From positions 32,001-96,000 of IMG/VR virus record IMGVR_UViG_3300021255_004000: a stretch of DNA of 64,000 nt; one strand, written 5' to 3'. Origin of the DNA: a virus (taxonomy: Duplodnaviria > Caudoviricetes). Shown here one piece after another: positions 9,166 through 54,337 of the stretch. A program made the position numbers and the translations under genes. How positions within the stretch are numbered: the first letter of the stretch is position 1; each line of letters opens with the position of its first letter. The notes beneath the pieces are model-generated. The model searched no databases. It was not told the origin of the DNA and worked only from the letters and a program-made list of their open reading frames with translations.

Positions 9166-9194
9166 AATATAAAAGACCTGATGCAAAAGTTCAA
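9166..9194 (-). promoter_or_regulatory. Early-type promoter TTGAAC-N17-TATATT
   Basis: Conserved repeat. Confidence 0.8.
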
Positions 9195-41160: not shown

Positions 41161-42549
41161 TTACTTTAACAGATTTTTAATGTTTGCAATCAGAATTGCC
41201 TTGTCAGTTTTTCCGTTGTTTACCTGATCTTTATGGGCAACTTCCAGAGCCTTGCGGAACTTTTCACTTGGCTTGAAACCTAAAGCAATCAGATCATCAC
41301 CAGTTACAATAGGTGCAGGAATTGGCTGACCAATTAAGCTTACAATTTTTGGAGAAGCCAGAGCTTCGTCTAAAGGCATTTCTTCATCGTCAGCAGCAGT
41401 TTTGATACAACCATCGCTGTCGCTTCTGCACAGCTCGCACAGTAAGTCGAAGTCAGGCAGATTCAGAATACTCATAATTGCAAACTTTTTATCCAGCAGG
41501 CCTAACTGATGCATCTTCATATGATTTGCAACTAAGCCTTCAACACGATGAGCTGTTGCACAATCTAATCTTAAGTCTCTCAGGAACTTGTAAGCAATAG
41601 GAGCACCAACTTCTGCGTGATCTTTAACTGCAGGGAAACCATTTTTGCTTAAGCCATTTTTGCGGCCTGAAGCAGGCTTTCCACAGTCGTGCAGAATTGC
41701 GCCCATTATGAAAACGAAACGGTCAATTTCATTTTCAATTTTAGGAGCACGAGCAACTGCAGCTTTTACAACCAGCATTGTGTGGTTGAAAACATTGCCT
41801 TCACTGTGCCATTTTGGGTTCTGCTCGCAAGTTTTCATATCTTCGAAAATCTCAGTTAAGTGAATTGCATCGAAGATTCCCATTCTTCTCATAATTTCAA
41901 AAACTTCCATTGTGAAGTCTTTACCGCCAAAAGTTTTGATTAACTCAGCACATTGTCTTTCAACAGAAACATCAGCAAAAACAACTTCAGGTGTTATTTT
42001 GTTGATGTGTGCCTCGATTGCAGCAACATCCTTTTCATTTGCCTTGAAGCCTTTTGAAGCAACAAAGCGAACATATCGGAAGATTCTTAAAGGATCTTCA
42101 GTGATGCGGTCAACTGCGTTTCCAACAAAACTTAATGTGTTTGATTTGATGTCAGCAATACCACAACCTGTTGGGTCGATAATGTTTCCATCTTTATCTT
42201 CGTACAAAGAGTTTACTGTAAAATCTCTGCGGAAAGCATCATCTTCAATTTTGTTTGAAAACTTGATTGTGGGATGGCGGCCTCTTGTCAGGTCAGAACG
42301 CCAAGTTGCAATTTCAACCTGTTCACCATTGATGATTGGCATTGCAACTCCGTACAAGTTTGCTTTTCTTGTTTCTGTAACACCAAAGATTTTGTTGATC
42401 TCATCAGGTGTTGCATTTGTTGAAATATCATAATCGTGAGGAGTTCTTCCAGTCAGTTCATCACGAACGCAACCGCCGACAAAGTAGGCCTTAAAACCAG
42501 CATTTTCAATAGGTGTAATAACTTTTTTGATAATTTCCTGCTTTGTCAA
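41161..42549 (-). CDS. cca: tRNA nucleotidyltransferase (CCA-adding, class II) with HD domain
   Basis: VGGCVRD, DYD, RRDFTVN, EDPLRIFR, H...HD; array tRNA genes lack an encoded CCA. Confidence 0.9.
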   Translation of the reverse strand: MTKQEIIKKVITPIENAGFKAYFVGGCVRDELTGRTPHDYDISTNATPDEINKIFGVTETRKANLYGVAMPIINGEQVEIATWRSDLTRGRHPTIKFSNKIEDDAFRRDFTVNSLYEDKDGNIIDPTGCGIADIKSNTLSFVGNAVDRITEDPLRIFRYVRFVASKGFKANEKDVAAIEAHINKITPEVVFADVSVERQCAELIKTFGGKDFTMEVFEIMRRMGIFDAIHLTEIFEDMKTCEQNPKWHSEGNVFNHTMLVVKAAVARAPKIENEIDRFVFIMGAILHDCGKPASGRKNGLSKNGFPAVKDHAEVGAPIAYKFLRDLRLDCATAHRVEGLVANHMKMHQLGLLDKKFAIMSILNLPDFDLLCELCRSDSDGCIKTAADDEEMPLDEALASPKIVSLIGQPIPAPIVTGDDLIALGFKPSEKFRKALEVAHKDQVNNGKTDKAILIANIKNLLK

Positions 42550-42571
42550 TTTGAACCTCCGTTACAAAAAT

Positions 42572-42600
42572 AATATAAAAGACTTGCACGGAAAGTTCAA
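42572..42600 (-). promoter_or_regulatory. Early-type promoter TTGAAC-N17-TATATT
   Basis: Conserved repeat upstream of cca. Confidence 0.75.
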
Positions 42601-43169
42601 ATATTATGCAAAAGTGGATGATTCTTTTTATAGTCGAACTTCAAGCCGTCCTTTACAATTTTGACGATTTCATCGTAGCCTTTTTCATTACCATCAACGA
42701 CAACAAATGGGATTTTATTGGATTCGAGAAACTTGGATGTTTTTCCATCTATCTCTTTAGCTTCGCCTTCAGTTTGATTTCTTCCGTTAGGATTATATGG
42801 CTTCACACGATTGATGACGAAGTTGAAGTTGAAACGATGATACTTTTCAAACTCTTCAAGAGATGCAGCTTTCAACATTGGCTGATCTTCTCTTGCGTAC
42901 AATGCACCAAGAGCAATAGGGCTATCAGTGATAATTACATCGACTTTGCCAAAGCAGCGGCTTATTTTGAAAGACTGCTTTCCTGTAATGTAAAATTGAT
43001 TTTTGAAAACTTCAGAGTTGTTTTCCCAAACTTTATCTTTTGCAAACTCAGAAACATATTCACAGTCAATACCTGCAAGTTTGAGTTTTGCAAAAACATA
43101 AGCGGCGCCTGTAGATTTTCCTGCGCCTGGGCCAGCGAAAAGATTTACAATAATTGTGTTTTTATCCAT
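42597..43169 (-). CDS. P-loop kinase (NadR/nucleoside-kinase-like)
   Basis: AGPGAGKST, EFAK, ITDSP. Confidence 0.75.
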   Translation of the reverse strand: MDKNTIIVNLFAGPGAGKSTGAAYVFAKLKLAGIDCEYVSEFAKDKVWENNSEVFKNQFYITGKQSFKISRCFGKVDVIITDSPIALGALYAREDQPMLKAASLEEFEKYHRFNFNFVINRVKPYNPNGRNQTEGEAKEIDGKTSKFLESNKIPFVVVDGNEKGYDEIVKIVKDGLKFDYKKNHPLLHNI

Positions 43170-43183
43170 AGTTGGATATTAAC

Positions 43184-43207
43184 AAAAAAGGTTGCTAAAA
43201 AGCAACC
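43184..43207 (-). terminator. Intrinsic terminator ending the tRNA array
   Basis: GGTTGCT-tttt-AGCAACC-TTTTTT on minus strand. Confidence 0.75.
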
Positions 43208-43212
43208 AATTA

Positions 43213-43295
43213 CGGAACCTGCGTGAGTCGAACACGCTCAACCCGAAGGTTGTACAGCTTAGCAGGCTGCTGCATTACCGTCCTGCCCAGATTCC
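43213..43295 (-). tRNA. tRNA-Ser(GCT)
   Basis: Cloverleaf, loop CTGCTAA, long variable arm. Confidence 0.9.
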
Positions 43296-43304
43296 AAAAT
43301 ACTT

Positions 43305-43379
43305 TGTGAGTGGCAGGAGTCGAACCCGCCTTCATCTGATCCGTAGTCAGAGGCACCAATTCCGATATACCACACTCAC
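43305..43379 (-). tRNA. tRNA-Arg(ACG)
   Basis: Loop CTACGGA. Confidence 0.9.
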
Positions 43380-43389
43380 ATAAAATATA

Positions 43390-43503
43390 GGCCTGTTGTA
43401 AATAGTGCAAGATTTTCAGTCTCGTGTGTCACCGTTTCACCTCATCAGGAAACCCTGATGGTGGGAGTCGAACCCACTTACGATAATAGGAACAACTTTT
43501 GCC
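43390..43503 (-). ncRNA. Y-like stem RNA copy 1 with circularly permuted tRNA-Phe(GAA)
   Basis: Order T-arm, acceptor hairpin, D-arm, anticodon arm inside the conserved stem. Confidence 0.8.
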
Positions 43504-43510
43504 TTATGAA

Positions 43511-43584
43511 AGCATCATATCGGATTCGAACCGACCCCTACTGCTTGGAGGGCAGTCGTGCTGAGCCGCTAACACTAATGATGC
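43511..43584 (-). tRNA. tRNA-Gly(TCC), C33
   Basis: Loop CCTCCAA; U73. Confidence 0.85.
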
Positions 43585-43597
43585 ATATTAAAGTTTT

Positions 43598-43671
43598 TGG
43601 GACCTCGAGGATTTGAACCCCGCACCCAGACATTATGAGTGTCGCGCTCTGACCCAATGAGCTAAGATCCC
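43598..43671 (-). tRNA. tRNA-CAT (probably Ile2, possibly Met)
   Basis: Loop CTCATAA; GGG acceptor. Confidence 0.8.
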
Positions 43672-43674
43672 ATA

Positions 43675-44050
43675 AAGATTACACAGTACTAAGAATCTGT
43701 ATCGAACGTCGTACTCGGCGGGATCCTTTTCACTGATGAAGTTGAGTGGCTACTGTGTATCACCATTGATATGACCTGCCGTGGGACACGGGCTTCATCA
43801 TCCTTTGAGCAGCAGTTTTGAGTGACGAGTTCAAAACTTTATTGCCTCTAAGTGCCGCAGGTTCTGTCAGTTGTTTGAGAAGGACAGCGTATGTTAGACG
43901 CTTCCTTAATTATTGTACACTTGGTACAACAATCTCTCGTGTTTCCCTTGTCTTTCAAATCAGGCGCAAGTAAGAAACAAAGCGTTATGGAACCACACAT
44001 AATTCACATCATTTGTTGAACTCATAACCCTAGAAATGCCAAAATCCCTA
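43675..44050 (-). ncRNA. Candidate large structured ncRNA (~370 nt)
   Basis: No credible ORF; many hairpins; TGTTAATATA motif just upstream. Confidence 0.45.
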
Positions 44051-44074
44051 TGTTTTTATATTAACATATTCAAG

Positions 44075-44147
44075 TCAGCCACCTGGGATTTGAACCCAGA
44101 ACCTAAGGATTAAGAGTCCCTCGCGCTAACCGTTGCGCCAGTGGCCG
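44075..44147 (-). tRNA. tRNA-Lys(CTT)
   Basis: Loop CTCTTAA. Confidence 0.9.
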
Positions 44148-44152
44148 ATAAG

Positions 44153-44223
44153 TGAGCGATACGGGAGTTGAACCCGTCTCAGCAGATTAAAAGTCTGCGG
44201 CAAAACCGATTTGCTAATCGCCC
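44153..44223 (-). tRNA. tRNA-Lys(TTT)
   Basis: Loop CTTTTAA. Confidence 0.85.
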
Positions 44224-44233
44224 GTAAATTGTT

Positions 44234-44306
44234 TGAGCTTGATGGGAATCGAACCCACGACCCACAGATTAAAAGTCTGTTGCTCTACCTATTGAGCTAC
44301 AAGCCC
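44234..44306 (-). tRNA. tRNA-Lys(TTT)
   Basis: Loop CTTTTAA. Confidence 0.95.
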
Positions 44307-44400
44307 ATAAGATACTCAAACAATTTAACAGGCTTTGTCTAAGGCAGCAATTACTGCTGCCACTTCCGCATTTCCTCTCATAATCATAATTTACTCCTTG

Positions 44401-44473
44401 AGATGAGGATGGGACTCGAACCCACCTGTAACAGTTTTGCAGACTGCTGCCTCACCAATTTGGCTACCTCATC
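44401..44473 (-). tRNA. tRNA-Cys(GCA)
   Basis: Loop CTGCAAA, U73. Confidence 0.9.
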
Positions 44474-44484
44474 ATAATTTTATT

Positions 44485-44556
44485 TACCGCGTGAAGGAGT
44501 TGAACCTTCCTAAGCCGTCTTGTAAGGGCGGTGCACAACCGATGTACCAACGCGGT
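44485..44556 (-). tRNA. tRNA-Val(TAC)
   Basis: Loop CTTACAA. Confidence 0.85.
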
Positions 44557-44566
44557 ATAAAGTTGA

Positions 44567-44649
44567 CGGAAGCGACAGGAATCGAACCTGCGACCTTTTT
44601 AGGGGAGACTGTTTTCAAGACAGTTTGATGCGCCAACCAACTCGCTTCC
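44567..44649 (-). tRNA. tRNA-Ser(TGA)
   Basis: Loop CTTGAAA, long variable arm, G73. Confidence 0.85.
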
Positions 44650-44657
44650 AAATGTAG

Positions 44658-44730
44658 GGTGCCCATCGGGATTCGAACCCGACCCTGAAGATCCACAATC
44701 TGCCGTGCTAACCGCTAACACTATGGGTAC
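44658..44730 (-). tRNA. tRNA-His(GTG)
   Basis: Loop TTGTGGA, C73; no encoded G-1. Confidence 0.85.
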
Positions 44731-44732
44731 AT

Positions 44733-44805
44733 TGCTGAAGGCAGGATTCGGACCTGCTACATCTGCCTTATGAGGGCAGCGTTCAACCGTATGAACTTCT
44801 TCAAC
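44733..44805 (-). tRNA. tRNA-Met(CAT)
   Basis: Loop CTCATAA; T-loop TCCGAAT. Confidence 0.8.
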
Positions 44806-44812
44806 ATAATAG

Positions 44813-44883
44813 CCCAAACTCAGGGATTTGAACCCCGGCTAGATGATCTTCAGTCACCTGTGCTACCGCTACACCAAGTTTGG
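44813..44883 (-). tRNA. tRNA-Phe(GAA)
   Basis: Loop CTGAAGA; atypical G37 and G73. Confidence 0.75.
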
Positions 44884-44888
44884 ATATC

Positions 44889-44962
44889 TGTGGCATCGGG
44901 GATTCGAACCCCGAAAATTTGCGTTCTTAGCGCAACAAGTATGCCAGTTCCATCAATGCCAC
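44889..44962 (-). tRNA. tRNA-Leu(AAG), short variable loop
   Basis: Loop CTAAGAA; Leu-type D arm, 5-nt variable region. Confidence 0.8.
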
Positions 44963-45570
44963 AAAAGTGTATTAGTTCGTTCATCGTATCTAATAAAGAT
45001 ACAATGAAGTCTACTTTTAATGTAGTCCTCTCTGGCTTTATCTTTCATCTTTCCTTTAACAGAATTGTGATAGCCTTTCTTTTCATCATATTCAAAAGCA
45101 ATGTTCAATTCTTTGTCATAGCCATCAAGGTGATATGGTCCAACACAAACTTCTCCGCCATTCATAGCGTGTTGTAAATGCCAACCATATTTTGCGTTCA
45201 GCTCATCAATGAACTTACAAGCATTTTCATTATAATTGCAATAGTTACCAAGATTGTGTCTTTTCCGCATCATCTCAGCAAGTTTTGCTCTTGTTTCAGG
45301 CGTATGAGTGTGGCCTTTCTTAATCTCACGATTAGGATTCAGTCCACAGTATCTCATATGTTGTGTTTTTGACTCCTTATTATTGAAGATTCTTCCGCAA
45401 AAGTCACAAAAACAAGTTTCTTTTCTATGAAGAGACCTTCCCAAGGAGTCAAGTCCTTGTTCTAATCTTTTTTCACAAGTTTTCTTATGTTCAAAATAGT
45501 TTCTTCTACCTTGAACAACACAACCACAATATTCACATTTCCAATTTTGAGCGTTTTTGTATGTTTTCAT
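44953..45570 (-). CDS. Homing-type endonuclease (Zn fingers, NUMOD3-like, Vsr/PD-(D/E)xK)
   Basis: CEYC, CDFC, HTPETRAKL, LDGYD...FEYDE; 3' end overlaps tRNA-Leu. Confidence 0.75.
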   Translation of the reverse strand: MKTYKNAQNWKCEYCGCVVQGRRNYFEHKKTCEKRLEQGLDSLGRSLHRKETCFCDFCGRIFNNKESKTQHMRYCGLNPNREIKKGHTHTPETRAKLAEMMRKRHNLGNYCNYNENACKFIDELNAKYGWHLQHAMNGGEVCVGPYHLDGYDKELNIAFEYDEKKGYHNSVKGKMKDKAREDYIKSRLHCIFIRYDERTNTLLWH

Positions 45571-45622
45571 ATCAATTAGTAAAGATTGGAAGACACACTT
45601 AACATCTCAAACCCATATTAAC

Positions 45623-45692
45623 AAAAAAGGCAACTCCTAAGAGCCGCCTTGAAAGATTTGTAAACTGTTTCTGCTTACAACTTCAAGGCTCT
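45623..45692 (-). promoter_or_regulatory. Attenuator 3: antiterminator/terminator
   Basis: Terminator AAGGCGGCTC-ttag-GAGTTGCCTT-TTTT; its 5' arm can instead pair with GCCTTGAAG spanning the leader stop. Confidence 0.8.
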
Positions 45693-45811
45693 AATACGAA
45701 ATGTTTTCCAAAGAGAGAACGAAGGACCATCTTCGAACACATACCGCATCCCAATACGAAACTAACAAATGAGGAATGTTTAACTATGTTCGACATCTTT
45801 GAAAAATTCAT
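45683..45811 (-). CDS. Leader peptide 3 (42 aa) MNFSKMSNIVKHSSFVSFVLGCGMCSKMVLRSLFGKHFVLEP
   Basis: AAGGA RBS; composition matches downstream tRNAs. Confidence 0.8.
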   Translation of the reverse strand: MNFSKMSNIVKHSSFVSFVLGCGMCSKMVLRSLFGKHFVLEP

Positions 45812-45893
45812 ATTCGTCAATCCTTAGCTATCAGGTTGCTACCCAAAATGTTTTTTCTTATTGAATAGTTAGTAAACAATTCAATAAAGTAAG

Positions 45894-45966
45894 TGGACCT
45901 ACCGAGCATCGAACTCGGACCTCAGGATTGCAGATCCCGTATGCCAGCCATTAACACCTTAAGCCC
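45894..45966 (-). tRNA. tRNA-Ala(TGC), C33
   Basis: Loop TCTGCAA; G3:U70. Confidence 0.85.
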
Positions 45967-45971
45967 ATAAA

Positions 45972-46092
45972 AATCTTCTGTTTATCCGCGAAGGTTGTTA
46001 CCAACTCTTCTTTCCTCTTGGAGGAACTGCTTTGTTTATTCTCCCGCTCCCGCATAACGCGTCGGTGTTGCGTTAGGAATTCACAGAAGATT
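45972..46092 (-). ncRNA. Candidate structured small RNA
   Basis: 10-bp closing stem AATCTTCTGT/ACAGAAGATT with internal hairpins. Confidence 0.45.
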
Positions 46093-46094
46093 AG

Positions 46095-46167
46095 TGGACC
46101 GTAGGGGAGTCGAACCCCTCTTTCCAGCGTGCAAAGCTGGAGTACTAAGCCGATATACGAACAGCCC
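46095..46167 (-). tRNA. tRNA-Ala(TGC)
   Basis: Loop TTTGCAC; G3:U70. Confidence 0.9.
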
Positions 46168-46174
46168 AAAATTA

Positions 46175-46260
46175 AAAGCGGGTTGTAAAAATTTCGCCGC
46201 AATGACGAAATATTGGAGTCGAACCAATAATTTCCGTTTAATAGGAACAACCTTTGCTTT
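46175..46260 (-). ncRNA. Y-like stem RNA copy 2 (T-arm plus acceptor-like hairpin)
   Basis: AGC-AAA-GGTTGT-TCCTA...ATTGG-TTCGACT-CCAAT...ACAACC-C-GCT. Confidence 0.75.
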
Positions 46261-46261
46261 A

Positions 46262-46333
46262 TTCCTCTGCTAGGATTCGAACCCAGAACAACTGATCCAG
46301 AGTCAGCAGTGTTACCAATTACACCACAGAGAA
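46262..46333 (-). tRNA. tRNA-Gln(CTG)
   Basis: Loop CTCTGGA. Confidence 0.9.
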
Positions 46334-46334
46334 G

Positions 46335-46406
46335 TCGGACGAGAAGGAGTTGAACCTTCGAAATCTCGGTCCCAGGCCGAGTGACATACCGCTTGCCGAC
46401 CGTCCG
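46335..46406 (-). tRNA. tRNA-Pro(TGG), C33
   Basis: Loop CCTGGGA; C1:G72, A73. Confidence 0.85.
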
Positions 46407-46414
46407 AAAATGAA

Positions 46415-46486
46415 AGCACCTGAAGGGAGTTGAACCCTCGCCTCAGCCTTGGCAAGGCCGCGTACTAGCCGTTATACTACAAGTAC
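46415..46486 (-). tRNA. tRNA-Gly(GCC)
   Basis: Loop TTGCCAA. Confidence 0.9.
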
Positions 46487-46495
46487 ATAAAATAT

Positions 46496-46570
46496 TGGGG
46501 TGGGTGGAATTGAACCACCGTGTAACCAACTAACCTTTCTGCGGTTTATCAGACCGAGGGTATACACCCC
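46496..46570 (-). tRNA. D-armless tRNA-Ile(GAT)-like RNA
   Basis: Acceptor GGGGTG/CACCCC, CGGT-CTGATAA-ACCG, long variable region, canonical T arm, no D stem. Confidence 0.6.
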
Positions 46571-46587
46571 ATTGTGTTTCAAGTTTT

Positions 46588-46660
46588 CAGGTGCGGAGAG
46601 ATTCGAACTCCCACCGACGGACTTGGAAACCGTAATGCTAAACCTTTACACCACGCACCT
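46588..46660 (-). tRNA. tRNA-Trp(CCA)
   Basis: Loop TTCCAAG; A1:U72, G73. Confidence 0.8.
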
Positions 46661-46668
46661 ATAAATCA

Positions 46669-46721
46669 TTAAAGGCTCAACTTTTAGTTGAGCCTGTAAA
46701 ATCCAAATTTTACTAGGCTCA
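46669..46721 (-). promoter_or_regulatory. Attenuator 2: antiterminator/terminator
   Basis: TGAGCCT-a-GTAAAAT-ttgg-ATTTTAC-AGGCTCA competes with AGGCTCAAC-taaaa-GTTGAGCCT. Confidence 0.8.
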
Positions 46722-46853
46722 CTTGATCTGCCACTGTCCTGAAATTGGGGCAATAGCTGCAACTGGTGCAAAGCCGGCGAAAGAAACTGGAAGACTAATG
46801 TGGCCGGCAAGTTTTACTGACTTAACTGATTTACAAACCATCATTGCTTTCAT
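46719..46853 (-). CDS. Leader peptide 2 (44 aa) MKAMMVCKSVKSVKLAGHISLPVSFAGFAPVAAIAPISGQWQIK
   Basis: AGGAG/AAGGA RBS, TGTTAATATA motif upstream; stop TGA begins the antiterminator arm. Confidence 0.8.
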   Translation of the reverse strand: MKAMMVCKSVKSVKLAGHISLPVSFAGFAPVAAIAPISGQWQIK

Positions 46854-46958
46854 ATTGTCCTTTCTCCTATAATTTTATATTAACAACTTTTCAGAAGTTT
46901 CTGAAAAATTATTTTCAATATTTAGTTAGTACAGTTGCAAAAACTGTAAGAGTTTTAA

Positions 46959-47040
46959 TCGGCCAGGAGAGACTCGAACTCTCAATCCACACGGCGTCCG
47001 ACCTTAATTCGGATGTGTATACCAATTCCACCACTGACCG
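46959..47040 (-). tRNA. tRNA-Leu(TAA)
   Basis: Loop ATTAAGG, long variable arm. Confidence 0.85.
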
Positions 47041-47047
47041 AACAAAA

Positions 47048-47230
47048 TTAACTATCCTTTAAGTATGCAACAGTTTTTCCATTTTCAAACATTTCTTGTT
47101 GAAGTTTGGAAATCTTGTTGTAAAGATCTTGGCAAATGCCTTTTGATCTTCCACTTAAATGGAAGCGTGCCATATGTCCTAGCACGAATGCAAGTTCTTG
47201 CAATCTCTCGTTATCGAGTTTGATTGTCAT
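47048..47230 (-). CDS. Small hypothetical protein
   Basis: AAGGAG RBS before MTIKLD. Confidence 0.55.
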   Translation of the reverse strand: MTIKLDNERLQELAFVLGHMARFHLSGRSKGICQDLYNKISKLQQEMFENGKTVAYLKDS

Positions 47231-47275
47231 ATAGACTCCTTGCACCACCAATTTTTTAATGAAATTGGAAACATT

Positions 47276-47342
47276 GGCGAGCTGTAGCAAATATACATTA
47301 ACAGTGTATTGCCTCATCGGCGTAATAGGAACAACTTATGCC
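47276..47342 (-). ncRNA. Y-like stem RNA copy 3 displaying an Asn(GTT) anticodon stem-loop
   Basis: GGC-ATA-AGTTGT-TCCTA...ATACA-CTGTTAA-TGTAT...ACAGCT-C-GCC. Confidence 0.75.
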
Positions 47343-47351
47343 TAACATGTG

Positions 47352-47433
47352 TGGCCGCAGGAAGTTTTGCCATCTCTTCGTCCCCCGACTTACAAGGTCG
47401 GTGCTCTTAGGGCAGTCTGAGCTACATTTGGCC
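47352..47433 (-). pseudogene. Aberrant tRNA-Thr(TGT)-like element
   Basis: D arm and CCGAC-CTTGTAA-GTCGG intact; T loop and acceptor non-canonical. Confidence 0.5.
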
Positions 47434-47434
47434 T

Positions 47435-47740
47435 TTGCTGCATCATAAAAAGACAACGCAGCGAAATCCGAAGTTTTTCTTTCAGTTGCCACAACCAAGT
47501 ATTTTTCAACCCACGTCTCATTAAGACAACCTACACTGGAGCTTTTGGTAAAACTTTCTACCCATATTCATCATACGGTAACCATTGTAAAGGCCTTTAT
47601 GCTTGTTCCGCCAGGCTCCCCGCTGACCAAGCTGATGTCTCGGTAATTTTTCATACCAGCCTCACCTTGGGCTCATACTTCCTTTCCCCAAGTACTCTTA
47701 GGTTTTCACGCGACCTAAACTATCCCACGAGTTTGAAAGA
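47435..47740 (-). ncRNA. Candidate large structured ncRNA (~300 nt)
   Basis: GC-richer than coding DNA, many hairpins, no credible ORF. Confidence 0.4.
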
Positions 47741-47751
47741 GTTTGCTTTCT

Positions 47752-48054
47752 CTAGTAATAACACCACCATTTGATACGACAAGTTTCACTGTCGAAGCAT
47801 TCAGTAAGAATGTTATCAATTTCCTCTTCCGTTGTATCAATATTAACAGATTTCAGTCTGCTTCTGATAAGTCCACGAGAATCTTTTTTCTTCTCGGAAC
47901 GGTCTCCTTTCATCGCACGGCGAGCGTAACGATCACAAGGATTTCCCCAACGGAACCAGAATCTTCGAGCTTCCTGTGTACCGCGTCTTGCGGTATATTC
48001 ACCGTAGCTGAAGTTTGCCTTATAAAAGGCGCTCTCGCAATAATCATTTAACAT
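47752..48054 (-). CDS. Small basic hypothetical protein
   Basis: AGGAG RBS; 100 aa. Confidence 0.6.
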   Translation of the reverse strand: MLNDYCESAFYKANFSYGEYTARRGTQEARRFWFRWGNPCDRYARRAMKGDRSEKKKDSRGLIRSRLKSVNIDTTEEEIDNILTECFDSETCRIKWWCYY

Positions 48055-48251
48055 CTAGTGTATCTCCTACACTATCCGTAAGTCATACGCGATCCTCCTA
48101 TTATAGCATCATCGTTCACAGGATCGAACTGCAACCGTACAGACCTTTAGAGCCTATCCGTTTTACCCCACACAGGGCGATGTTGCTTATGGTTGAACGA
48201 GATGGCAACAACATTACTTGTACACCAACGTCATCTGCTATAAAACTAAGA

Positions 48252-48333
48252 TGGGCCAAAGGAGAGTCGAACTCCTAATCCTTTCGGCGACTGCTTTTGA
48301 GGCAGTTGCGTATACCAGTTCCGCCATTAGCCC
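48252..48333 (-). tRNA. tRNA-Leu(CAA)
   Basis: Loop CTCAAAA, long variable arm. Confidence 0.9.
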
Positions 48334-48339
48334 AAATGA

Positions 48340-48412
48340 TTGCGGGAGGTGGACTCGAACCACCGACCTTCGGGTTATGGGCCCGATAAGCTGCCAACTG
48401 CTCTATCCCGCG
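48340..48412 (-). tRNA. tRNA-fMet(CAT), C33
   Basis: C1:A72 mismatch, GGG/CCC anticodon stem, loop CCCATAA. Confidence 0.9.
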
Positions 48413-48427
48413 ATGTAACATGTGTTT

Positions 48428-48503
48428 TGACGCTGACAGGACTCGAACCTGCGACACCGAGCTTAGAAGGCTCGTGTTCTTATTCCAGCTGAACTACAGC
48501 GCC
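48428..48503 (-). tRNA. tRNA-Arg(TCT)
   Basis: Loop CTTCTAA. Confidence 0.9.
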
Positions 48504-48685
48504 ATATTGAAAGTACTTTATACGTCGGACCAGTCCGTTCAGCTTTCGCCTAGGGAGTTTCGAGGCTCCCACCTACGCATATCAACTTTCTGTGTGCTTT
48601 TCGGGCTTCTTCTACTAAGCACTTAAACTTTCAGTTCTGCTAGAAACCAAAGTTCTTGACGTTCTCTCTAGCAATGAGAACCGTA

Positions 48686-48760
48686 TAGCTGTTGCAGGAG
48701 TCGAACCTGCTATCGTAAAGGATATGAGCCTCACATATTGAACCGTTCTACCCAACAGCG
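48686..48760 (-). tRNA. tRNA-Met(CAT)-like, initiator-like variant
   Basis: Loop CTCATAT; 1:72 mismatch; weak D stem. Confidence 0.65.
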
Positions 48761-48767
48761 ACGTACA

Positions 48768-48891
48768 AAAAGACGAGTTGTATTATTCGTGCTCTAACCG
48801 CTGAGCTATCCGCCCACGAACGAGCGGAGTTGGATTCGAACCAACGACCCCGTGCTTAAAAGGCAACAAATAGGAACAACTTATGTCTTTT
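48768..48891 (-). ncRNA. Y-like stem RNA copy 4 with circularly permuted tRNA-Lys(TTT)
   Basis: TGC-CTTTTAA-GCACG, T arm, acceptor hairpin, D arm, then CG, all inside the conserved stem. Confidence 0.85.
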
Positions 48892-48893
48892 AG

Positions 48894-48966
48894 CGGTGTA
48901 TGCGGGAATCGAACCCGCCATCTCCTGCGTGACAGGCAGGCGAAATAGCCGATATTCAAATACACC
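48894..48966 (-). tRNA. tRNA-Asp(GTC)
   Basis: Loop CTGTCAC, G73. Confidence 0.9.
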
Positions 48967-49175
48967 AAATAAACAAACCACCTTCCAAACGGAACGCCCG
49001 ATACTTGATCTTAATGTCCGCACTTATCCAAGAGTTTCATTTCGCGCGAGAAACTCTCGGGGGTTAGGGAGCTACAGGTGCCTAGGCTTACTACGATTAA
49101 GCCAACAAATGCGAGCTCGTCTCACAAAGGTTTGTACTTTTTGCCAACTTCTGTCTAGAATGAAGTTGAAAGTAG

Positions 49176-49263
49176 TGGGCCGAGAGGGAGTCGAACCCCC
49201 GATGTTTGCCGTAAAGGTGACGGATTTACAGTCCGCTGACTTCGCCACTGGTCACACCGACCC
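49176..49263 (-). tRNA. tRNA-Tyr(GTA)
   Basis: Loop CTGTAAA, long variable arm. Confidence 0.9.
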
Positions 49264-49329
49264 ATAAAATTGATGGCCGTGCTCATCACACATTTACAAC
49301 ATCGTTTCGAGCAATGTTACCATCAAGTA

Positions 49330-49402
49330 AGCTACTTGTAGGACTTGAACCCACAACATCCTGATTACAGGTCAGGCGCTCTACCATTGGAGCTAAAGTA
49401 GC
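49330..49402 (-). tRNA. tRNA-Thr(TGT), C33
   Basis: Loop CCTGTAA; G1:C72, C2:G71. Confidence 0.85.
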
Positions 49403-49558
49403 ACAATAAAAGATAAATTACATTTTTTCTTTCCATACATCTTTCATTCTAATTTGTCCGCGGTCACTGAACGAAGAAGATGGTTGTATTAGATGTTCTA
49501 TAACTTTTCGGGGCCTTAAGCCCGTATTGAGTGTTTCAACATCAGTCTCTTATCTTTA

Positions 49559-49631
49559 AGCCGCCTGAGGGATTTGAACCCACAACATCCGCATTACAGG
49601 TGCGGCGCTCTACCATTGGAGCTAAGGAGGC
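49559..49631 (-). tRNA. tRNA-Thr(TGT), C33
   Basis: Loop CCTGTAA; paralogue of 49330-49402. Confidence 0.85.
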
Positions 49632-49634
49632 ATA

Positions 49635-49706
49635 CAGTTCCGAAAGGAGTCGAACCTTCGTTCTCTGGATGAAAACCAGATGGCCTAGCCGTTAGCCGAC
49701 GGAACC
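49635..49706 (-). tRNA. tRNA-Glu(TTC)
   Basis: Loop TTTTCAT. Confidence 0.9.
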
Positions 49707-49787
49707 AAAAACTGTGAACTACTTCTAAGACTGGACGGAAGTATAGCAGCTCGTTCAAAAGATATATTGACTTTCAAACTTTTGTCT

Positions 49788-49872
49788 CGTATCAGGCAGG
49801 GCTCGAACCTGCGATGGGCTTTCGCTCGGCAGATTAACAGTCTGCTGTCTTCGACCACTCGACCACTGATAC
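49788..49872 (-). tRNA. tRNA-Asn(GTT) with long variable arm
   Basis: Loop CTGTTAA, G73, class-II-like body. Confidence 0.85.
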
Positions 49873-49879
49873 ATATTTA

Positions 49880-50431
49880 TTATGTTAAAAAGATTTTTAC
49901 TTCTTCTATAAAGATTTTAGGATTATTGAAAATATCTTTCCAAGATTTTCTCAATTCTTTCCATCCTTCTTCATTCAGAAGTTTATCTTTCTGAACATCT
50001 CTTTCTTTTTGCTCTTGAAATCTTTCGTGTTGTTCACCATCAATTTCAACGCAAAGTTTTTTGTCAGGCCAAGCAAAGTCCAAAGAAAACCTATGAAAAG
50101 GAACTTCTCTGTAATAATCTTTATCAATTTCTTGACCAAATTCATTTCTCATCATTGTAATAAACCACTCCTCAGGATATGAAGGTTTATTATTCCAACG
50201 ACAATCTCCAATGTTATGAGCTCGACCTTCAGCGTGAGCTTTTTTCATCGAAGCAGAAATCTTTTGTCTAACATCATCCGACATTGTATGTCCGCAATGA
50301 TCCTTCAACTTCTGTCTTGTTTCTTCTGACAAAACAGGTTTTTCTTTTCCAAGAGCTTTAGCCTTAGTATATTGATTTGTACCGTGGCCTTTTCTTGCGT
50401 GCATTGCATCGTACCATTTTTGACTTTTCAT
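49880..50431 (-). CDS. Homing-type endonuclease (NUMOD3-like plus Vsr/DUF559-like)
   Basis: SEETRQKL, SDDVRQKIS repeats; LDFAW...VEIDGEQH...D..L...GW. Confidence 0.8.
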   Translation of the reverse strand: MKSQKWYDAMHARKGHGTNQYTKAKALGKEKPVLSEETRQKLKDHCGHTMSDDVRQKISASMKKAHAEGRAHNIGDCRWNNKPSYPEEWFITMMRNEFGQEIDKDYYREVPFHRFSLDFAWPDKKLCVEIDGEQHERFQEQKERDVQKDKLLNEEGWKELRKSWKDIFNNPKIFIEEVKIFLT

Positions 50432-50519
50432 ATCAATTAGTACGGTCCTCCGCTCTACATGTGTCCCTATCGTCGGAACCTATTGTCAACATCTTATCGT
50501 CGGTCCCTATTGTCGGTAG

Positions 50520-50593
50520 CGGGATATGCGAGCATCGAACTCGCGACCTCTAGCGTGACAGGCTAGCGTGGTAGCCAACTCCACCAATACCCC
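50520..50593 (-). tRNA. tRNA-Asp(GTC)
   Basis: Loop CTGTCAC. Confidence 0.9.
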
Positions 50594-50807
50594 AAAATTG
50601 TAGGTATAAGAAACCTTTTGCAAGGAAAGGAATTACCCGTATGCCTTTTACCAGCCAACAACTTGTTCAGTAGTTCCATTTCTGTTATCTGACCAATAGT
50701 GTTTCTACTGGCTCTGACAAGTTATCAACCAAGGATTCGAACCTTCCACCGAACGATACCACGAGGTGGCAGCAACCAAGCTGTTATTTTATTCCGTTTA
50801 ACGTTCT

Positions 50808-50880
50808 TAGATCTTGCGGGGATCGAACCCACTCCTCCACCTTGAAAGGGTGGCGACTCAACCTTTTTGTCCTAAGATCC
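50808..50880 (-). tRNA. tRNA-Glu(TTC)
   Basis: Loop CTTTCAA. Confidence 0.85.
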
Positions 50881-50935
50881 ATATTTGAAGTTTCCTTCTT
50901 TTGTTGTAAACCTTTTGTATCGGTTTTACAGAAAT

Positions 50936-50964
50936 AATATAAAAGAAGTTTTTTCAAAGTTCAA
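50936..50964 (-). promoter_or_regulatory. Early-type promoter TTGAAC-N17-TATATT upstream of tRNA block 1
   Basis: Conserved repeat. Confidence 0.8.
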
Positions 50965-50999
50965 AAATTTTTATTTTTTTGCAATTTTTGTTATAAAAC

Positions 51000-51061
51000 A
51001 AAAAAGGCAAACCTTCATCGGTTTGCCTCAGGGAAACATTTCTCAGTTCTCTAAGGCAACC
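51000..51061 (-). promoter_or_regulatory. Attenuator 1: antiterminator/terminator
   Basis: Terminator AGGCAAACC-gatgaa-GGTTTGCCT followed by a T tract; GGTTGCCTTAG (leader end and stop) pairs with CTGAGGCAAACC. Confidence 0.8.
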
Positions 51062-51173
51062 TTGTATCTTCATTATAATCGTATTCATCTGTAGTGATAG
51101 CAGTTCTAACATCATTATTCAATAATGATCTTGTTGTGAGAACTTCTGCTGTCAATGAATACAATGAAGTCAT
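51051..51173 (-). CDS. Leader peptide 1 (40 aa) MTSLYSLTAEVLTTRSLLNNDVRTAITTDEYDYNEDTRLP
   Basis: AAGGAAGG RBS, ACTAAT motif upstream; composition matches downstream tRNAs. Confidence 0.8.
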   Translation of the reverse strand: MTSLYSLTAEVLTTRSLLNNDVRTAITTDEYDYNEDTRLP

Positions 51174-51267
51174 TTTTAATAGCCCTTCCTTAATATATTT
51201 CAATTAGTACAACCCTTAAAAATGTAAGAGTTGTAATTTGTTCCTCGTATATTTATATTAACAGATT

Positions 51268-51867
51268 TTAGTCTTCTGCTGTAGGAATTTCAATTCCAAA
51301 CAGTTTTGATAACTTATCTTTCCAATTAAGGAAATCATCGTTATGGCCGCCATCTGCATAATAAGTTACACCGTCATAAATCTTATCATAATTTGATAAG
51401 AAAGCTTTACAGAACTCTTCGTTCTCAGGATCGCCATCGCTGGCAGTATCATAAAGCTCGTCAATAAGTGTATCAAGCTTCTCAATGCAGTTTGCTGCTG
51501 CTTCATAGTTTGTCCAAACTCTTGAGAGAATTTGGAATAAACTTATCAACTTCATAAACTTATGCTTCAAAGCATCTGTTTTGATTACATCATACATATC
51601 AGAAAGTTCGCCGCCTACAATAACTGGGACGCCATTCAATCTTTCAAATGCGTGACATAATTCGTGTGCAACATATTTAGGCAAGTCCTCTTTGGAAACT
51701 TTTTTCCAAACAGAAATACTCTTTTCTGAAATGTTGTACTTTGCTTTCATTCCTGTGTAGTCAAAGTCGACAACATTTATAGAAACACTTGGACACGGAA
51801 TACCTGCATCCTCAAGCTTATCAAGCAAATTGTCTAAACACGCCTGTGCATCTTCTTGTTTAATCAT
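51268..51867 (-). CDS. Zincin-like (HExxH) protein
   Basis: VAHELCH; AGGAG RBS. Confidence 0.6.
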   Translation of the reverse strand: MIKQEDAQACLDNLLDKLEDAGIPCPSVSINVVDFDYTGMKAKYNISEKSISVWKKVSKEDLPKYVAHELCHAFERLNGVPVIVGGELSDMYDVIKTDALKHKFMKLISLFQILSRVWTNYEAAANCIEKLDTLIDELYDTASDGDPENEEFCKAFLSNYDKIYDGVTYYADGGHNDDFLNWKDKLSKLFGIEIPTAED

Positions 51868-52035
51868 AAACGGTACTCCTAATATTTAGTTATAGGAGAA
51901 AGAGTTCTCGCCGGTTTTAATTTCTCAAACTACAGCCCCGCTACCTGCATTCGATTTTTGCAAGCCATACGAGTAGCATCACTGCTGCGAGGTTGATGGG
52001 ACTTTCACCCATAGTGACGTTTAACGAACTCCTAA

Positions 52036-52124
52036 TTCGGAAGGCGGGATTCGAACCTGCACGACGCTGATATGCGTCACCAGAATCAAAGTCTGGGGAG
52101 ATACCAATTACTCTTTACTTCCGA
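52036..52124 (-). tRNA. tRNA-Gln(TTG) with long variable arm
   Basis: Loop CTTTGAT; GACGC-atatca-GCGTC extra arm. Confidence 0.7.
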
Positions 52125-52244
52125 GTAAAATAGTTTTCTCACTCTTGTTTGCAACGCGACGCAAGATTCCAATAGGTGGACATATCCGATATTCCTATTA
52201 TACGGAAGGCCCTTAAGCGCATCTACTGCCGCGAGAAAACTATA

Positions 52245-52576
52245 GGTGAACCAAGGACTTGAACCTTGCCGTTACTCCAGCCTTGCGAGCTTCACGGATC
52301 CAACAGTGTCCACCATCATTATAAGTGCAGTCGGGAATTGAACCCGCTCTCAGCTGGCGTGATCCGCGTGGGACGAAGCCGTGCCTTTTTCCTTCATCGC
52401 ACTTAACAAGCCTTACGGATTGCTCCTGCTTGTAATGGAGTCTTAGAGGTTTGACTGCCAACCTTTAGAACATAGAGGATTCGAACCTCAGTTTCTGAGC
52501 ATACTACACTCAGCGTTCTAGACCCTGCCCTACTTTGCTGTGCACTGCTTTTTCGAGCTTTCGAACTAATGTTCTC
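52245..52576 (-). ncRNA. Three tRNA-like RNAs with acceptor and T arm but non-canonical interior
   Basis: T arms CAAGG-TTCAAGT-CCTTG, CGGG-TTCAATT-CCCG, GAGG-TTCGAAT-CCTC, each with paired ends. Confidence 0.55.
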
Positions 52577-52706
52577 CTTTGACGGTATCAACTTCATCCT
52601 GCGTCGTCATATACAGGCCTTTACCATCCGGTGCTTCCAGCGGTTGAGTATAACTCCTCATATTTCCCGTTCTCTGTGTAGCCATCTACGTTGAAGTTGT
52701 CAAATA

Positions 52707-52779
52707 TAGTTCCTACGGGGCTTGAACCCATTTTTCGAGCTTGAGAGGCTCGCGAATTAGCCAGTTATTCGAAGGAACC
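52707..52779 (-). tRNA. tRNA-Glu(CTC)
   Basis: Loop CTCTCAA. Confidence 0.85.
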
Positions 52780-52784
52780 AAAAA

Positions 52785-53015
52785 TTACATCTCAGGAATA
52801 AGCGTGCCATCTTTTAACCAAGCTTTTGGAGTAAAGTTTGGCATAGGCTGTAATGTTTCAAAAGACCACCAAGCATTATCATTTTTATCCCAAAGACCAT
52901 AACCAATGCCTTTTGAACCATCACTGTTAAAACCTACAAGAAGAACGACACCTTGATCTTTCCCTGCTTCCAAGTCAAAATTCCAAGTTGCTTCAACTGT
53001 TACTGTCTTTGCCAT
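52785..53015 (-). CDS. Small hypothetical protein
   Basis: GGAGG RBS, early promoter upstream. Confidence 0.65.
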   Translation of the reverse strand: MAKTVTVEATWNFDLEAGKDQGVVLLVGFNSDGSKGIGYGLWDKNDNAWWSFETLQPMPNFTPKAWLKDGTLIPEM

Positions 53016-53047
53016 ACTCGCCTCCTTGTTTGCGTTTTGACAATAAT

Positions 53048-53076
53048 AATATAAAAGAATGTTTGAAAAAGTTCAA
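53048..53076 (-). promoter_or_regulatory. Early-type promoter TTGAAC-N17-TATATT
   Basis: Conserved repeat. Confidence 0.8.
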
Positions 53077-53149
53077 AAATTCTTAAATATTTTTCAAAAA
53101 AAAATACCTGCAGCAACAGCCACAGGTATTATATTAACACTTTAGGCTA

Positions 53150-54337
53150 TTACTGTTGAACCTGCTGTTGAGCTTGCTCCAAAGCTAAGTTTGGATTTTC
53201 CTGAGCAACCTGAATTGCCTGAGCAACAACATCAGGATTGATATTTGCACCAAGCTGATTTCCATATCTTTTATAGAAATTAAGAGCTGCACCAACATTC
53301 TTACAGCGAATTGCTGCTGCTGCGAGAATCATATTCTCGACTCCATTATGATTTTGGAAGAACTGTGGAAGATCATTTCGAAGTCCCTGCTCGCCCTGTG
53401 CATTTGCCTGACCTAAGAACTTGGAAATATAATTTACCAATTCTTTAGCTCCTGCATCAGTACCATCAAAATTGTTAAGTTGCTTTACGATTGCATTTGC
53501 AGTCATATTAGCAGAAGCTTCGTTCATTTGAATAAGACTTTCAAAGAAGTTGGTTTTCTCATCTTTAGCAGGTTTAGCAGCTTCAAGGATTTCATTAAAC
53601 AAACTTTCTTTGAAGCCAAGCTTCTGAAGAATTGAAGATTTTGCTTGTGGCTGCGCAGCAGTTGGCATTACAGTTCCAGTGTTGTTATCAACAACCTGAG
53701 CATTCTTGTTCATTGACATATCAGGCTTTTCAGGAGACCAATCCTGCATTGCTGCTTTTTCTTTTGCTGGAGCAGCAGCGTAAGCTTTCTGAAACTTGTC
53801 AACACGAGCAGCTGCGGCAGGAGACATTGAGTTCTTTGCTGCAACTGGGTTAGCCCAAGCAGTTTTATCAGGTCCCATAGGAACGCCTACATAAACACCT
53901 GTTTTATCAACTTCTGCCTGTCCTCTTCCGTTAGGCCCTGGTGTTATATCACGAATGCCTTTGTTAGCAAGATCACCAGCAAGAGCGCGGCCTGATGCTT
54001 CGCCGTTTGCATACTGCATTGTTCCGCCAATCTGTGCTTCACGAATGTTTACTGACCAGTTCTTTTCGATTTTTGGAAGTATTCCTCTTACCCATCTCAT
54101 CAAACTGTTAAACTGTTCAGGATTTTCTGTTGGATGTTCTTCATCAATCTTTCCTGCGATGTATTCAACAATTCCTATATCTGGGTCATTTACGCCTGCG
54201 TCAACATCTTCGCAATATCTGCCATACCAAAAGTCAACATCAGCTTCAAGACCATCATAAGAATCAAAAAAGTTTCCTTCGCGGAAAGTATCATATGCAT
54301 ATCCTCTGTTAAGGAGGTCCTCAATCATCTTTTCCAT
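53150..54337 (-). CDS. Probable head internal protein
   Basis: ACTAAT motif; IRE, FKES, ILEA, MNEA putative cleavage sites. Confidence 0.55.
   Translation of the reverse strand: MEKMIEDLLNRGYAYDTFREGNFFDSYDGLEADVDFWYGRYCEDVDAGVNDPDIGIVEYIAGKIDEEHPTENPEQFNSLMRWVRGILPKIEKNWSVNIREAQIGGTMQYANGEASGRALAGDLANKGIRDITPGPNGRGQAEVDKTGVYVGVPMGPDKTAWANPVAAKNSMSPAAAARVDKFQKAYAAAPAKEKAAMQDWSPEKPDMSMNKNAQVVDNNTGTVMPTAAQPQAKSSILQKLGFKESLFNEILEAAKPAKDEKTNFFESLIQMNEASANMTANAIVKQLNNFDGTDAGAKELVNYISKFLGQANAQGEQGLRNDLPQFFQNHNGVENMILAAAAIRCKNVGAALNFYKRYGNQLGANINPDVVAQAIQVAQENPNLALEQAQQQVQQ

Follow-up and report, generated by a model that had tools for sequence, protein, structure and literature searches.

How a phage might match the transcription of its tRNA genes to demand is the question raised by a short open reading frame (ORF) that lies just ahead of a predicted intrinsic terminator and a block of tRNA genes in a 64,000-nucleotide stretch of Caudoviricetes DNA (positions 32,001 to 96,000 of the IMG/VR record IMGVR_UViG_3300021255_004000). 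We refer to this whole stretch as the window, to the ORF as leader 1 and to the leader with its terminator as unit 1. The purpose and expression of the tRNA arrays of large phages are debated, with proposals that include compensation for codon usage, substitution for host tRNAs lost to degradation and evasion of defences that cleave tRNA. All 35 tRNA genes that ARAGORN called in the window are on the minus strand between 43.2 and 52.8 kb, and a few more were detected by Rfam alone. The block behind leader 1 (block A, 46958..50881, minus strand) comprises, by ARAGORN, genes for Glu, Asp, Asn, Glu, Thr, Thr, Tyr, Asp, Arg(TCT), Met, Leu(CAA) and Leu(TAA), and Rfam added a CAT tRNA at 48686-48760. 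A preliminary description of the locus had read it as an attenuator that senses the amino acids carried by the tRNAs of this block. Our analysis supports that reading: unit 1 is probably a ribosome-mediated, leader-peptide transcription attenuator ahead of a phage tRNA block. The evidence is a short ORF led by a Shine-Dalgarno sequence, a match between its codons and the block, a terminator, a mutually exclusive antiterminator that includes the leader's stop codon, two sibling units elsewhere in the array, and covariation between leader and tRNA gene content in relatives. We infer that the leader ORF is translated, that the terminator works and that tRNA supply is the variable sensed.

Leader 1 (51051..51173, minus strand) runs from an ATG at 51173 through 40 codons to a TAG stop at 51053..51051, and the sequence contains a Shine-Dalgarno motif, AGGAAGG (51184..51190, minus strand), 10 nt upstream of the start codon. 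The composition given in the preliminary description holds. Thirty-one of its 40 residues belong to the block-A set of amino acids (D, E, L, M, N, R, T and Y); residues 27-39 match at 13 of 13 positions; and the peptide lacks F, K, H, C, G, Q and W altogether. Only 2 of the 12,917 forty-residue windows in the long ORFs of the window reach a score of at least 31/40. The binomial P of leader 1 is 2e-5 at a background of 0.44, and no other of the 217 ATG-initiated ORFs of 30-60 codons in the six frames scores better for block A. When the amino-acid labels were permuted, 60 of 200,000 permutations reached 31/40 (3e-4). The agreement described for individual codons was also found, with the Leu codons being TTG (four), TTA (one) and CTC (one) and the Arg codons AGA, AGA and AGG, a usage consistent with the Leu(CAA), Leu(TAA) and Arg(TCT) genes of the block. 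This codon-level match is weaker than the amino-acid match and only mildly significant, because TTR already accounts for 41% of the Leu codons and AGR for 44% of the Arg codons in the phage genes (P of about 0.05 for 5/6 TTR and about 0.09 for 3/3 AGR, binomial calculated by hand). None of the three leader peptides of the array matched a Pfam family.

The structure predicted downstream of the ORF supplies the two alternative helices of an attenuator. The terminator (50995..51029, minus strand) has a GC-rich stem of 10 bp with a 6-nt loop (GATGAA), at 51029..51004, and a U-run tail, TTTTTTGTTTT. Upstream of it, the strand GGTTGCCTTAG (51051..51061, minus strand), which includes the stop codon of the leader, pairs in minimum free energy (MFE) folds with positions 51031..51020. 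The complementary strand, CTGAGGCAAACC (51020..51031, minus strand), holds the 5' arm of the terminator (51029..51020), so that the sequestration of this arm proposed earlier is recovered in the MFE fold of the whole leader (z -4.3). The antiterminator fold captures 9 of the 10 bases of the arm, and its predicted stability (-16.1 kcal/mol) is close to that of the terminator (-15.9 kcal/mol); only 6 of 2000 shuffles of the upstream part matched it. Competing structures of this kind are rare in the window. Among its 22 terminator-like hairpins, the leader 1 terminator ranks second for competing upstream structure, and a strongly non-random competing helix was found at just two of them, leader 1 (z -3.5) and a sibling unit at 45650 (z -4.9), the next best having a z of -1.75. 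The interior of the leader 1 ORF also folds (z -4.3), with no conserved pause element that could be defined.

The position of a ribosome on the leader is predicted to select between these helices. We calculated equilibrium pair probabilities while masking a ribosome footprint, which was assumed to cover positions -15 to +12 relative to the first base of the A-site codon. The probability of the terminator was 0.97 for an A site at codons 36-41 (41 being the stop). With the A site at codons 31-34 (Tyr-Asp-Tyr-Asn), it fell to 0.05-0.29 and the terminator arm paired upstream with a probability of 0.63-0.84. The codons at which the model switches are those of one motif conserved between clades: the control codons Glu-Tyr-Asp-Tyr-Asn (codons 30-34; 51072..51086, minus strand) are the sole block shared by the two clades of leaders described below. 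Untranslated leader RNA would probably read through, with kinetics favouring the antiterminator, because the antiterminator is transcribed before the terminator.

The same architecture occurs three times in the array. Each of the three perfect copies of the motif CTTAC-N14-TACTAA is followed by a Shine-Dalgarno sequence, an ORF of 40-44 codons, an antiterminator strand and a terminator, and the stop codon of each leader is within or beside the strand complementary to the start of the terminator 5' arm. The second leader (46719..46853, minus strand; 44 codons) precedes a block with Trp, Ile(GAT, unusual), Gly, Pro, Gln, Arg and Ala genes, and 44 of its 44 residues are served by the two downstream blocks. 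The third (45683..45811, minus strand; 42 codons) precedes Leu(AAG), Phe, Met, His, Ser, Val, Cys, three Lys, Gly, Arg(ACG) and Ser genes; its own block serves 37 of its 42 residues, a score that none of 12,841 protein windows reached. Both siblings carry AAGGA 5-9 nt upstream of their ATG. Every leader is rich in amino acids of the block behind it and poor in those of the other blocks; taken together, the three leaders match their own blocks at 88 of 126 residues, a total that was not reached in 200,000 label permutations. When the 217 small ORFs were scored blind, the sibling leaders ranked 1 and 2 and leader 1 ranked 6. The antiterminator pairs of the sibling units differ in sequence (TGAGCCT:AGGCTCA, GCCTTGA:TCAAGGC and GCTTGGG:CCCAAGC). 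In all six units that we folded, the antiterminator was at least as stable as the terminator, and 0-13 of 2000 shuffles reached its stability.

Two features of the sibling units deserve mention as observations in their own right. Between the third terminator and tRNA-Leu(AAG), the window has a Cys-rich ORF of 205 amino acids (44953-45570, minus strand) with no match in PHROG. Sequence comparison indicates that this ORF is an insertion, because it is absent in the relative L019, where the third terminator touches tRNA-Leu. Behind the second leader, which has five Ile codons, an unusual gene resembling tRNA-Ile(GAT) (46495-46571, minus strand), in which there is a long extra segment, scored 32.9 bits with Rfam and was not called by ARAGORN; a normal tRNA-Ile(GAT) occupies this place in L019.

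Relatives of the window, drawn from IMG/VR and metagenome contigs, fall into two clades. Scanning IMG/VR with an exact pattern of leader 1 returned no match and a query with the CCA-adding enzyme returned no relatives there; a looser pattern returned 23 loci, of which only the five known relatives are leaders, the rest being chance matches inside long ORFs. The clade of the window (L017, L018 and L019) has kept all three units, with in-frame indels in leader 1 that remove one AAT codon (L018) or add one GAA codon (L019). The second clade (G001-G004 and L020-L025) has two units only, and its first block additionally has Leu(AAG), Pro, Arg(ACG), Ser, Trp, two Gln and one Ile-type tRNA gene. The first leader of this clade is homologous to leader 1 and carries Glu-Tyr-Asp-Tyr-Asp in the corresponding position. 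Leader length (39-41 codons) and the constant distance of the Glu-Tyr-Asp-Tyr-Asp/Asn block from the antiterminator are conserved, but the peptides are only about 30% identical between clades, compared with 79-85% for the neighbouring 199-amino acid protein.

What changed in the leader follows what changed in the tRNA genes. The second-clade first leader contains Trp, three Gln, three Pro and four Ile, so that Pro, Trp, Gln and Ile make up 11 of its 39 residues versus 2 of 40 in leader 1 (Fisher P 0.006). Its own block serves 37 of the 39 residues (reached in 9 of 200,000 permutations), compared with 23 of 39 for the block of the window. Similarly, the second leader of this clade has three Ala codons ahead of a block with Ala tRNA genes, and its homologue in the window has neither. 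A conserved Leu-Phe-Gly/Ala-Lys-His motif in the homologous pair of C-type leaders is at the same relative place as the switch codons of leader 1. The overlap of stop codon and antiterminator has been kept despite sequence change, as GCCTAGT:ACTAGGC in G001 and as GCCTAGGT:ACTTAGGC in G004, with a compensating indel. Within the G001 clade, codons 1-34 have five synonymous and two non-synonymous variable sites. Among the differences listed for strain variants in contigs of rumen RNA libraries, five fall in the leader 1 ORF (ACA>ACG, ACT>ACA, TTG>TTA, Asp29>Asn and Asn19>Asp), and these five (three synonymous, two replacements) all stay within block-A codons. Some arrays of the relatives have peculiarities of their own. 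In L019, an insertion of about 720 nt splits tRNA-Asp (11670-12459) close to its anticodon loop into halves at 11670-11705 and 12429-12459, and no group I intron was matched there by Rfam. ARAGORN also called tRNAs with four-base anticodons (tttc and atga) in L015, L023, L024 and L025, for example at L023 10238-10321 and L025 20281-20378.

Several promoter-like motifs could supply transcripts to unit 1. The ACTAAT motif that the preliminary description had noticed upstream of leader 1 turned out to be part of CTTAC-N14-TACTAA (51204..51228, minus strand), a leader-specific promoter-like or regulatory site. Its three perfect copies in the 64 kb (at 51228, 46950 and 45893) each stand shortly before a leader ORF, and relatives with two leaders have two copies, one at each leader. 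The possibility that CTTAC...TACTAA forms an RNA hairpin was dropped, as it fits three units but not the sibling units. Farther upstream, a TGTTAATATA motif with a T4-late-like TATAAATA core (51254..51263, minus strand) may be a promoter feeding leader 1. This motif is widespread, with 8 copies in the window versus 0.18 expected, most of them 26-48 nt upstream of the ATGs of ordinary genes and one preceding the sibling leader at 46853; the TACTAA motif is, by comparison, confined to the three leaders. The conditional late boost over basal early expression that the preliminary description suggested would depend on which of these two motifs is active, and at what time. The promoter that had been placed after the terminator is also present. 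It is a sigma-70-like TTGAAC-N17-TATATTAT site (50934..50964, minus strand) directly behind the leader 1 terminator, and one of 10 near-identical sites, all on the minus strand. The consensus, TTGAACTT-N-CTTTTATATTAT, occurs 10 times versus 0.03 expected (for example, at 9194, 22723, 42600, 53076 and 63623), and relatives have a promoter-like site at the equivalent place after the first terminator. The first tRNA gene behind the terminator begins at 50881. A promoter in this position would give block A a basal input, and attenuator 1 would therefore only add to it or insulate it.

We propose the following mechanism for unit 1. Transcripts with the 40-codon leader would arrive from the leader's own promoter-like motifs or from the 199-amino acid gene. 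A fast ribosome would reach the TAG stop and cover GGTTGCCTTAG, allowing the terminator hairpin to form and transcription to end at about 51000. A ribosome delayed earlier would leave the GGTTGCCTTAG strand free; stalls at the Tyr-Asp-Tyr-Asn codons (31-34) are predicted to be the most effective, and those at earlier Thr, Glu, Asn, Asp, Leu(TTR) and Arg(AGR) codons would be effective as well. Once free, the strand would pair with the terminator 5' arm and let the polymerase enter the Glu, Asp, Asn, Thr, Tyr, Arg(TCT), Met and Leu(CAA/TAA) tRNA genes. The result would be a negative feedback in which a shortage of usable tRNA for the leader codons increases transcription of those same tRNA genes. 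For block A, the attenuator would act as a conditional input over the basal promoter and also as a conditional insulator. Extended to the whole array, the model predicts that phage tRNA arrays are self-tuning, each block being gated by a leader spelled in the codons that its tRNAs read, a generalization towards which we lean slightly. The phage would thereby gauge host decoding per codon family and boost whichever tRNA set runs short, as might happen when host tRNAs are turned over or cut by anticodon nucleases; the link to nucleases of QUN-anticodon tRNAs that the preliminary description raised is speculative. In this system of three channels, attenuator 1 would report on Glu, Tyr, Asp, Asn, Thr, Arg(AGR) and Leu(TTR).

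Not all observations favour an attenuator tuned to tRNA supply. In the equilibrium model, free leader RNA is mixed, with a terminator probability of 0.67. Nine residues of leader 1 (Ser, Ala, Val, Ile and Pro) are served by other blocks, and identical control codons nowhere form a run in it, which may leave it with a low sensitivity to any single tRNA. Among relatives, two substitutions in the G001 clade (Glu8Lys and Thr20Ala) fall outside the served set, and the first block of G002/L003 lacks Pro and Tyr tRNA genes even though the leader keeps three Pro and three Tyr codons. All relatives belong to one group of rumen phages, which makes for a small independent evolutionary sample. The promoter at 50964..50934 can drive block A without the attenuator, whose regulatory weight may accordingly be small. 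Finally, a 5.4-kb contig from one RNA-library study runs straight through the terminator. Of the contigs from two other studies, one of 193 nt, from a metatranscriptome, covers 51207..51017 and one ends at 51012. We did not use any of these contigs as evidence for or against termination, because contigs establish the presence of the stretch in a library but define no transcript ends, and DNA carry-over is possible; they are compatible with a short leader RNA and are at most a weak hint.

Against this background, other explanations have to be weighed. The leader could be a general sensor of translation status that responds to host shut-off, ribosome-targeting toxins or lost coupling, with the codon match being secondary. 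The predicted folding is in keeping with this, since the antiterminator would be free on any stall upstream of codon 35, or without a ribosome, and leader 1 mixes at least eight amino acids without single-codon runs. Yet a generic sensor has no need for three leaders that partition the amino acids by their own blocks as they do here, nor for leader content that tracks tRNA gene content between clades, and we therefore regard it as unlikely. The translation-dependent step could instead protect the tRNA promoter region from read-through out of the 199-amino acid gene or the early unit, with the leader ensuring termination. Such an insulator would suit the layout of unit 1, where the terminator closes a unit that starts at the promoter at 53076..53046 and a consensus promoter follows at once. 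It would, however, make the antiterminator and the codon match unnecessary. Moreover, both sibling terminators adjoin tRNA genes, the third as seen in L019, with no space for a promoter; the sibling units must therefore gate tRNA transcription. We consider insulation alone very unlikely.

More simply, leader 1 could encode an ordinary small protein and the terminator could belong to the upstream unit, the helix and the composition being coincidental. Small ORFs are indeed common among phage tRNA genes, as in T5, which has many, and a terminator with a new promoter behind it is what a normal boundary between transcription units looks like. An ordinary small protein would be hard to reconcile with a peptide that belongs to no Pfam family and has diverged between clades so much more than its neighbour, and coincidence with an architecture that recurs three times with block-matched composition. 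The competing helix is, in addition, restricted to the leader terminators, and the small ORFs of T5 have no terminator before the tRNA. This explanation, too, seems to us very unlikely, and a tRNA-responsive attenuator is the reading that we retain.

Attenuation of this type is well known in bacteria. The enterobacterial multivalent attenuators include the thr leader, which senses Thr and Ile, and the ilvGMEDA and ilvBN leaders, which sense Ile, Leu and Val. Unit 1 resembles these leaders in having a short ORF that is led by a Shine-Dalgarno sequence and rich in control codons for several amino acids, and an intrinsic terminator with a mutually exclusive antiterminator, so that ribosome position would select the helix. 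As in those leaders, the stop codon is at the antiterminator strand and a finishing ribosome would favour termination. Judged by its sequence, unit 1 is of the trpL/hisL/thrL/ilvL class with respect to the ribosome binding site-led ORF, control codons, terminator, antiterminator and geometry. Unlike the thr and ilv leaders, it precedes tRNA genes (together with an HNH ORF and ORFs of 100 and 89 amino acids) rather than biosynthetic or synthetase genes, and the feedback would be on tRNA supply rather than amino-acid supply. Its control set comprises eight amino acids with no long codon runs, it is found in a phage genome in three block-specific copies, and no clear 1:2 pause hairpin could be established. 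The E. coli pheST attenuator, in which a Phe-rich leader precedes the phenylalanyl-tRNA synthetase genes, is similar in that leader-peptide attenuation controls a component of the translation apparatus and not biosynthesis; it differs in acting on the synthetase for one amino acid instead of the tRNA genes themselves.

T-box riboswitches likewise couple tRNA status to terminator read-through via an antiterminator, but they bind uncharged tRNA directly and have no leader ORF. No T-box or other cis-regulatory family was detected at the leader in an Rfam scan of 42000-54000 (E up to 1), which returned only tRNA-type matches and chance-level matches to YrlA, Plastid-ycf2, a Tymo tRNA-like element and a tmRNA fragment, none of them at the leader. 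The tRNA region of phage T5 (NC_005859) also has short ORFs between tRNA genes. Unlike leader 1, each of the twelve T5 ORFs that we examined is followed immediately by the next tRNA or gene, and no obvious codon match was seen. As they lack a terminator and an antiterminator, we rejected them as a precedent. Full-text literature searches did not find a description of leader-peptide attenuation of phage tRNA genes.

If the attenuator operates as proposed, leader codons that mirror the gated tRNA genes would show that phage tRNA arrays are regulated by demand, extending classical attenuation from amino-acid supply to tRNA supply. The leader would also be a compact natural sensor of codon-specific ribosome speed. 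The three-unit layout of the window and the two-unit layout of relatives with re-written leaders amount to a natural experiment that supports the demand logic, and the attenuator reading makes both the regulation and the purpose of phage tRNA arrays directly testable.

The wider setting of the array is that of a giant rumen phage, in phage-like DNA (approximately 38% GC) with genes for GroEL, a CCA-adding enzyme and a thymidylate kinase. No INPHARED phage matched the window by blastn or tblastn, and the sequencing runs that contain the attenuator stretch are bovine and sheep gut (rumen-type) libraries. In addition to its tRNA genes, block A houses the HNH endonuclease ORF and the two ORFs of 100 and 89 amino acids noted above, and the hairpin scan of the window found no terminator-like hairpins within the block on the minus strand. 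One element in the block (48788-48852, minus strand) resembles a permuted or split tRNA, in which the 3' half (T arm and acceptor 3' strand) precedes, with a 5-nt gap, a 5' half (acceptor 5' strand and D arm) that can pair with it; Rfam gave it only a weak YrlA-like match. An 80-nt segment between tRNA-Glu and tRNA-Asp (50650-50729) is missing from contigs of three rumen RNA libraries. We rejected splicing as the source of this skip (50649/50730) in favour of a strain indel, as the Glu-Asp spacing in L018 is correspondingly shorter; the indel spans a tRNA-like remnant.

Upstream of leader 1, the region 52150-52700 (minus strand) contains several tRNA-like pieces with the T-arm consensus GGTTCGAATCC / GGTTCAATTCC / GGTTCAAGTCC that neither ARAGORN nor Rfam called as tRNAs. 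A conserved RNA-like element of about 130 nt, with the motifs GGGTGAAAGTCCCA ... GGCTTGCAAAAATC ... GGGGCTGTAGTTTGA, is also found in this part of the window (51900-52030, minus strand) and at 4625-4745 of the relative L001. It is upstream of the 199-amino acid ORF in the window and downstream of it in relatives. Rfam returned no match to the element at E up to 1, and its motifs are reminiscent of the core of RNase P RNA.

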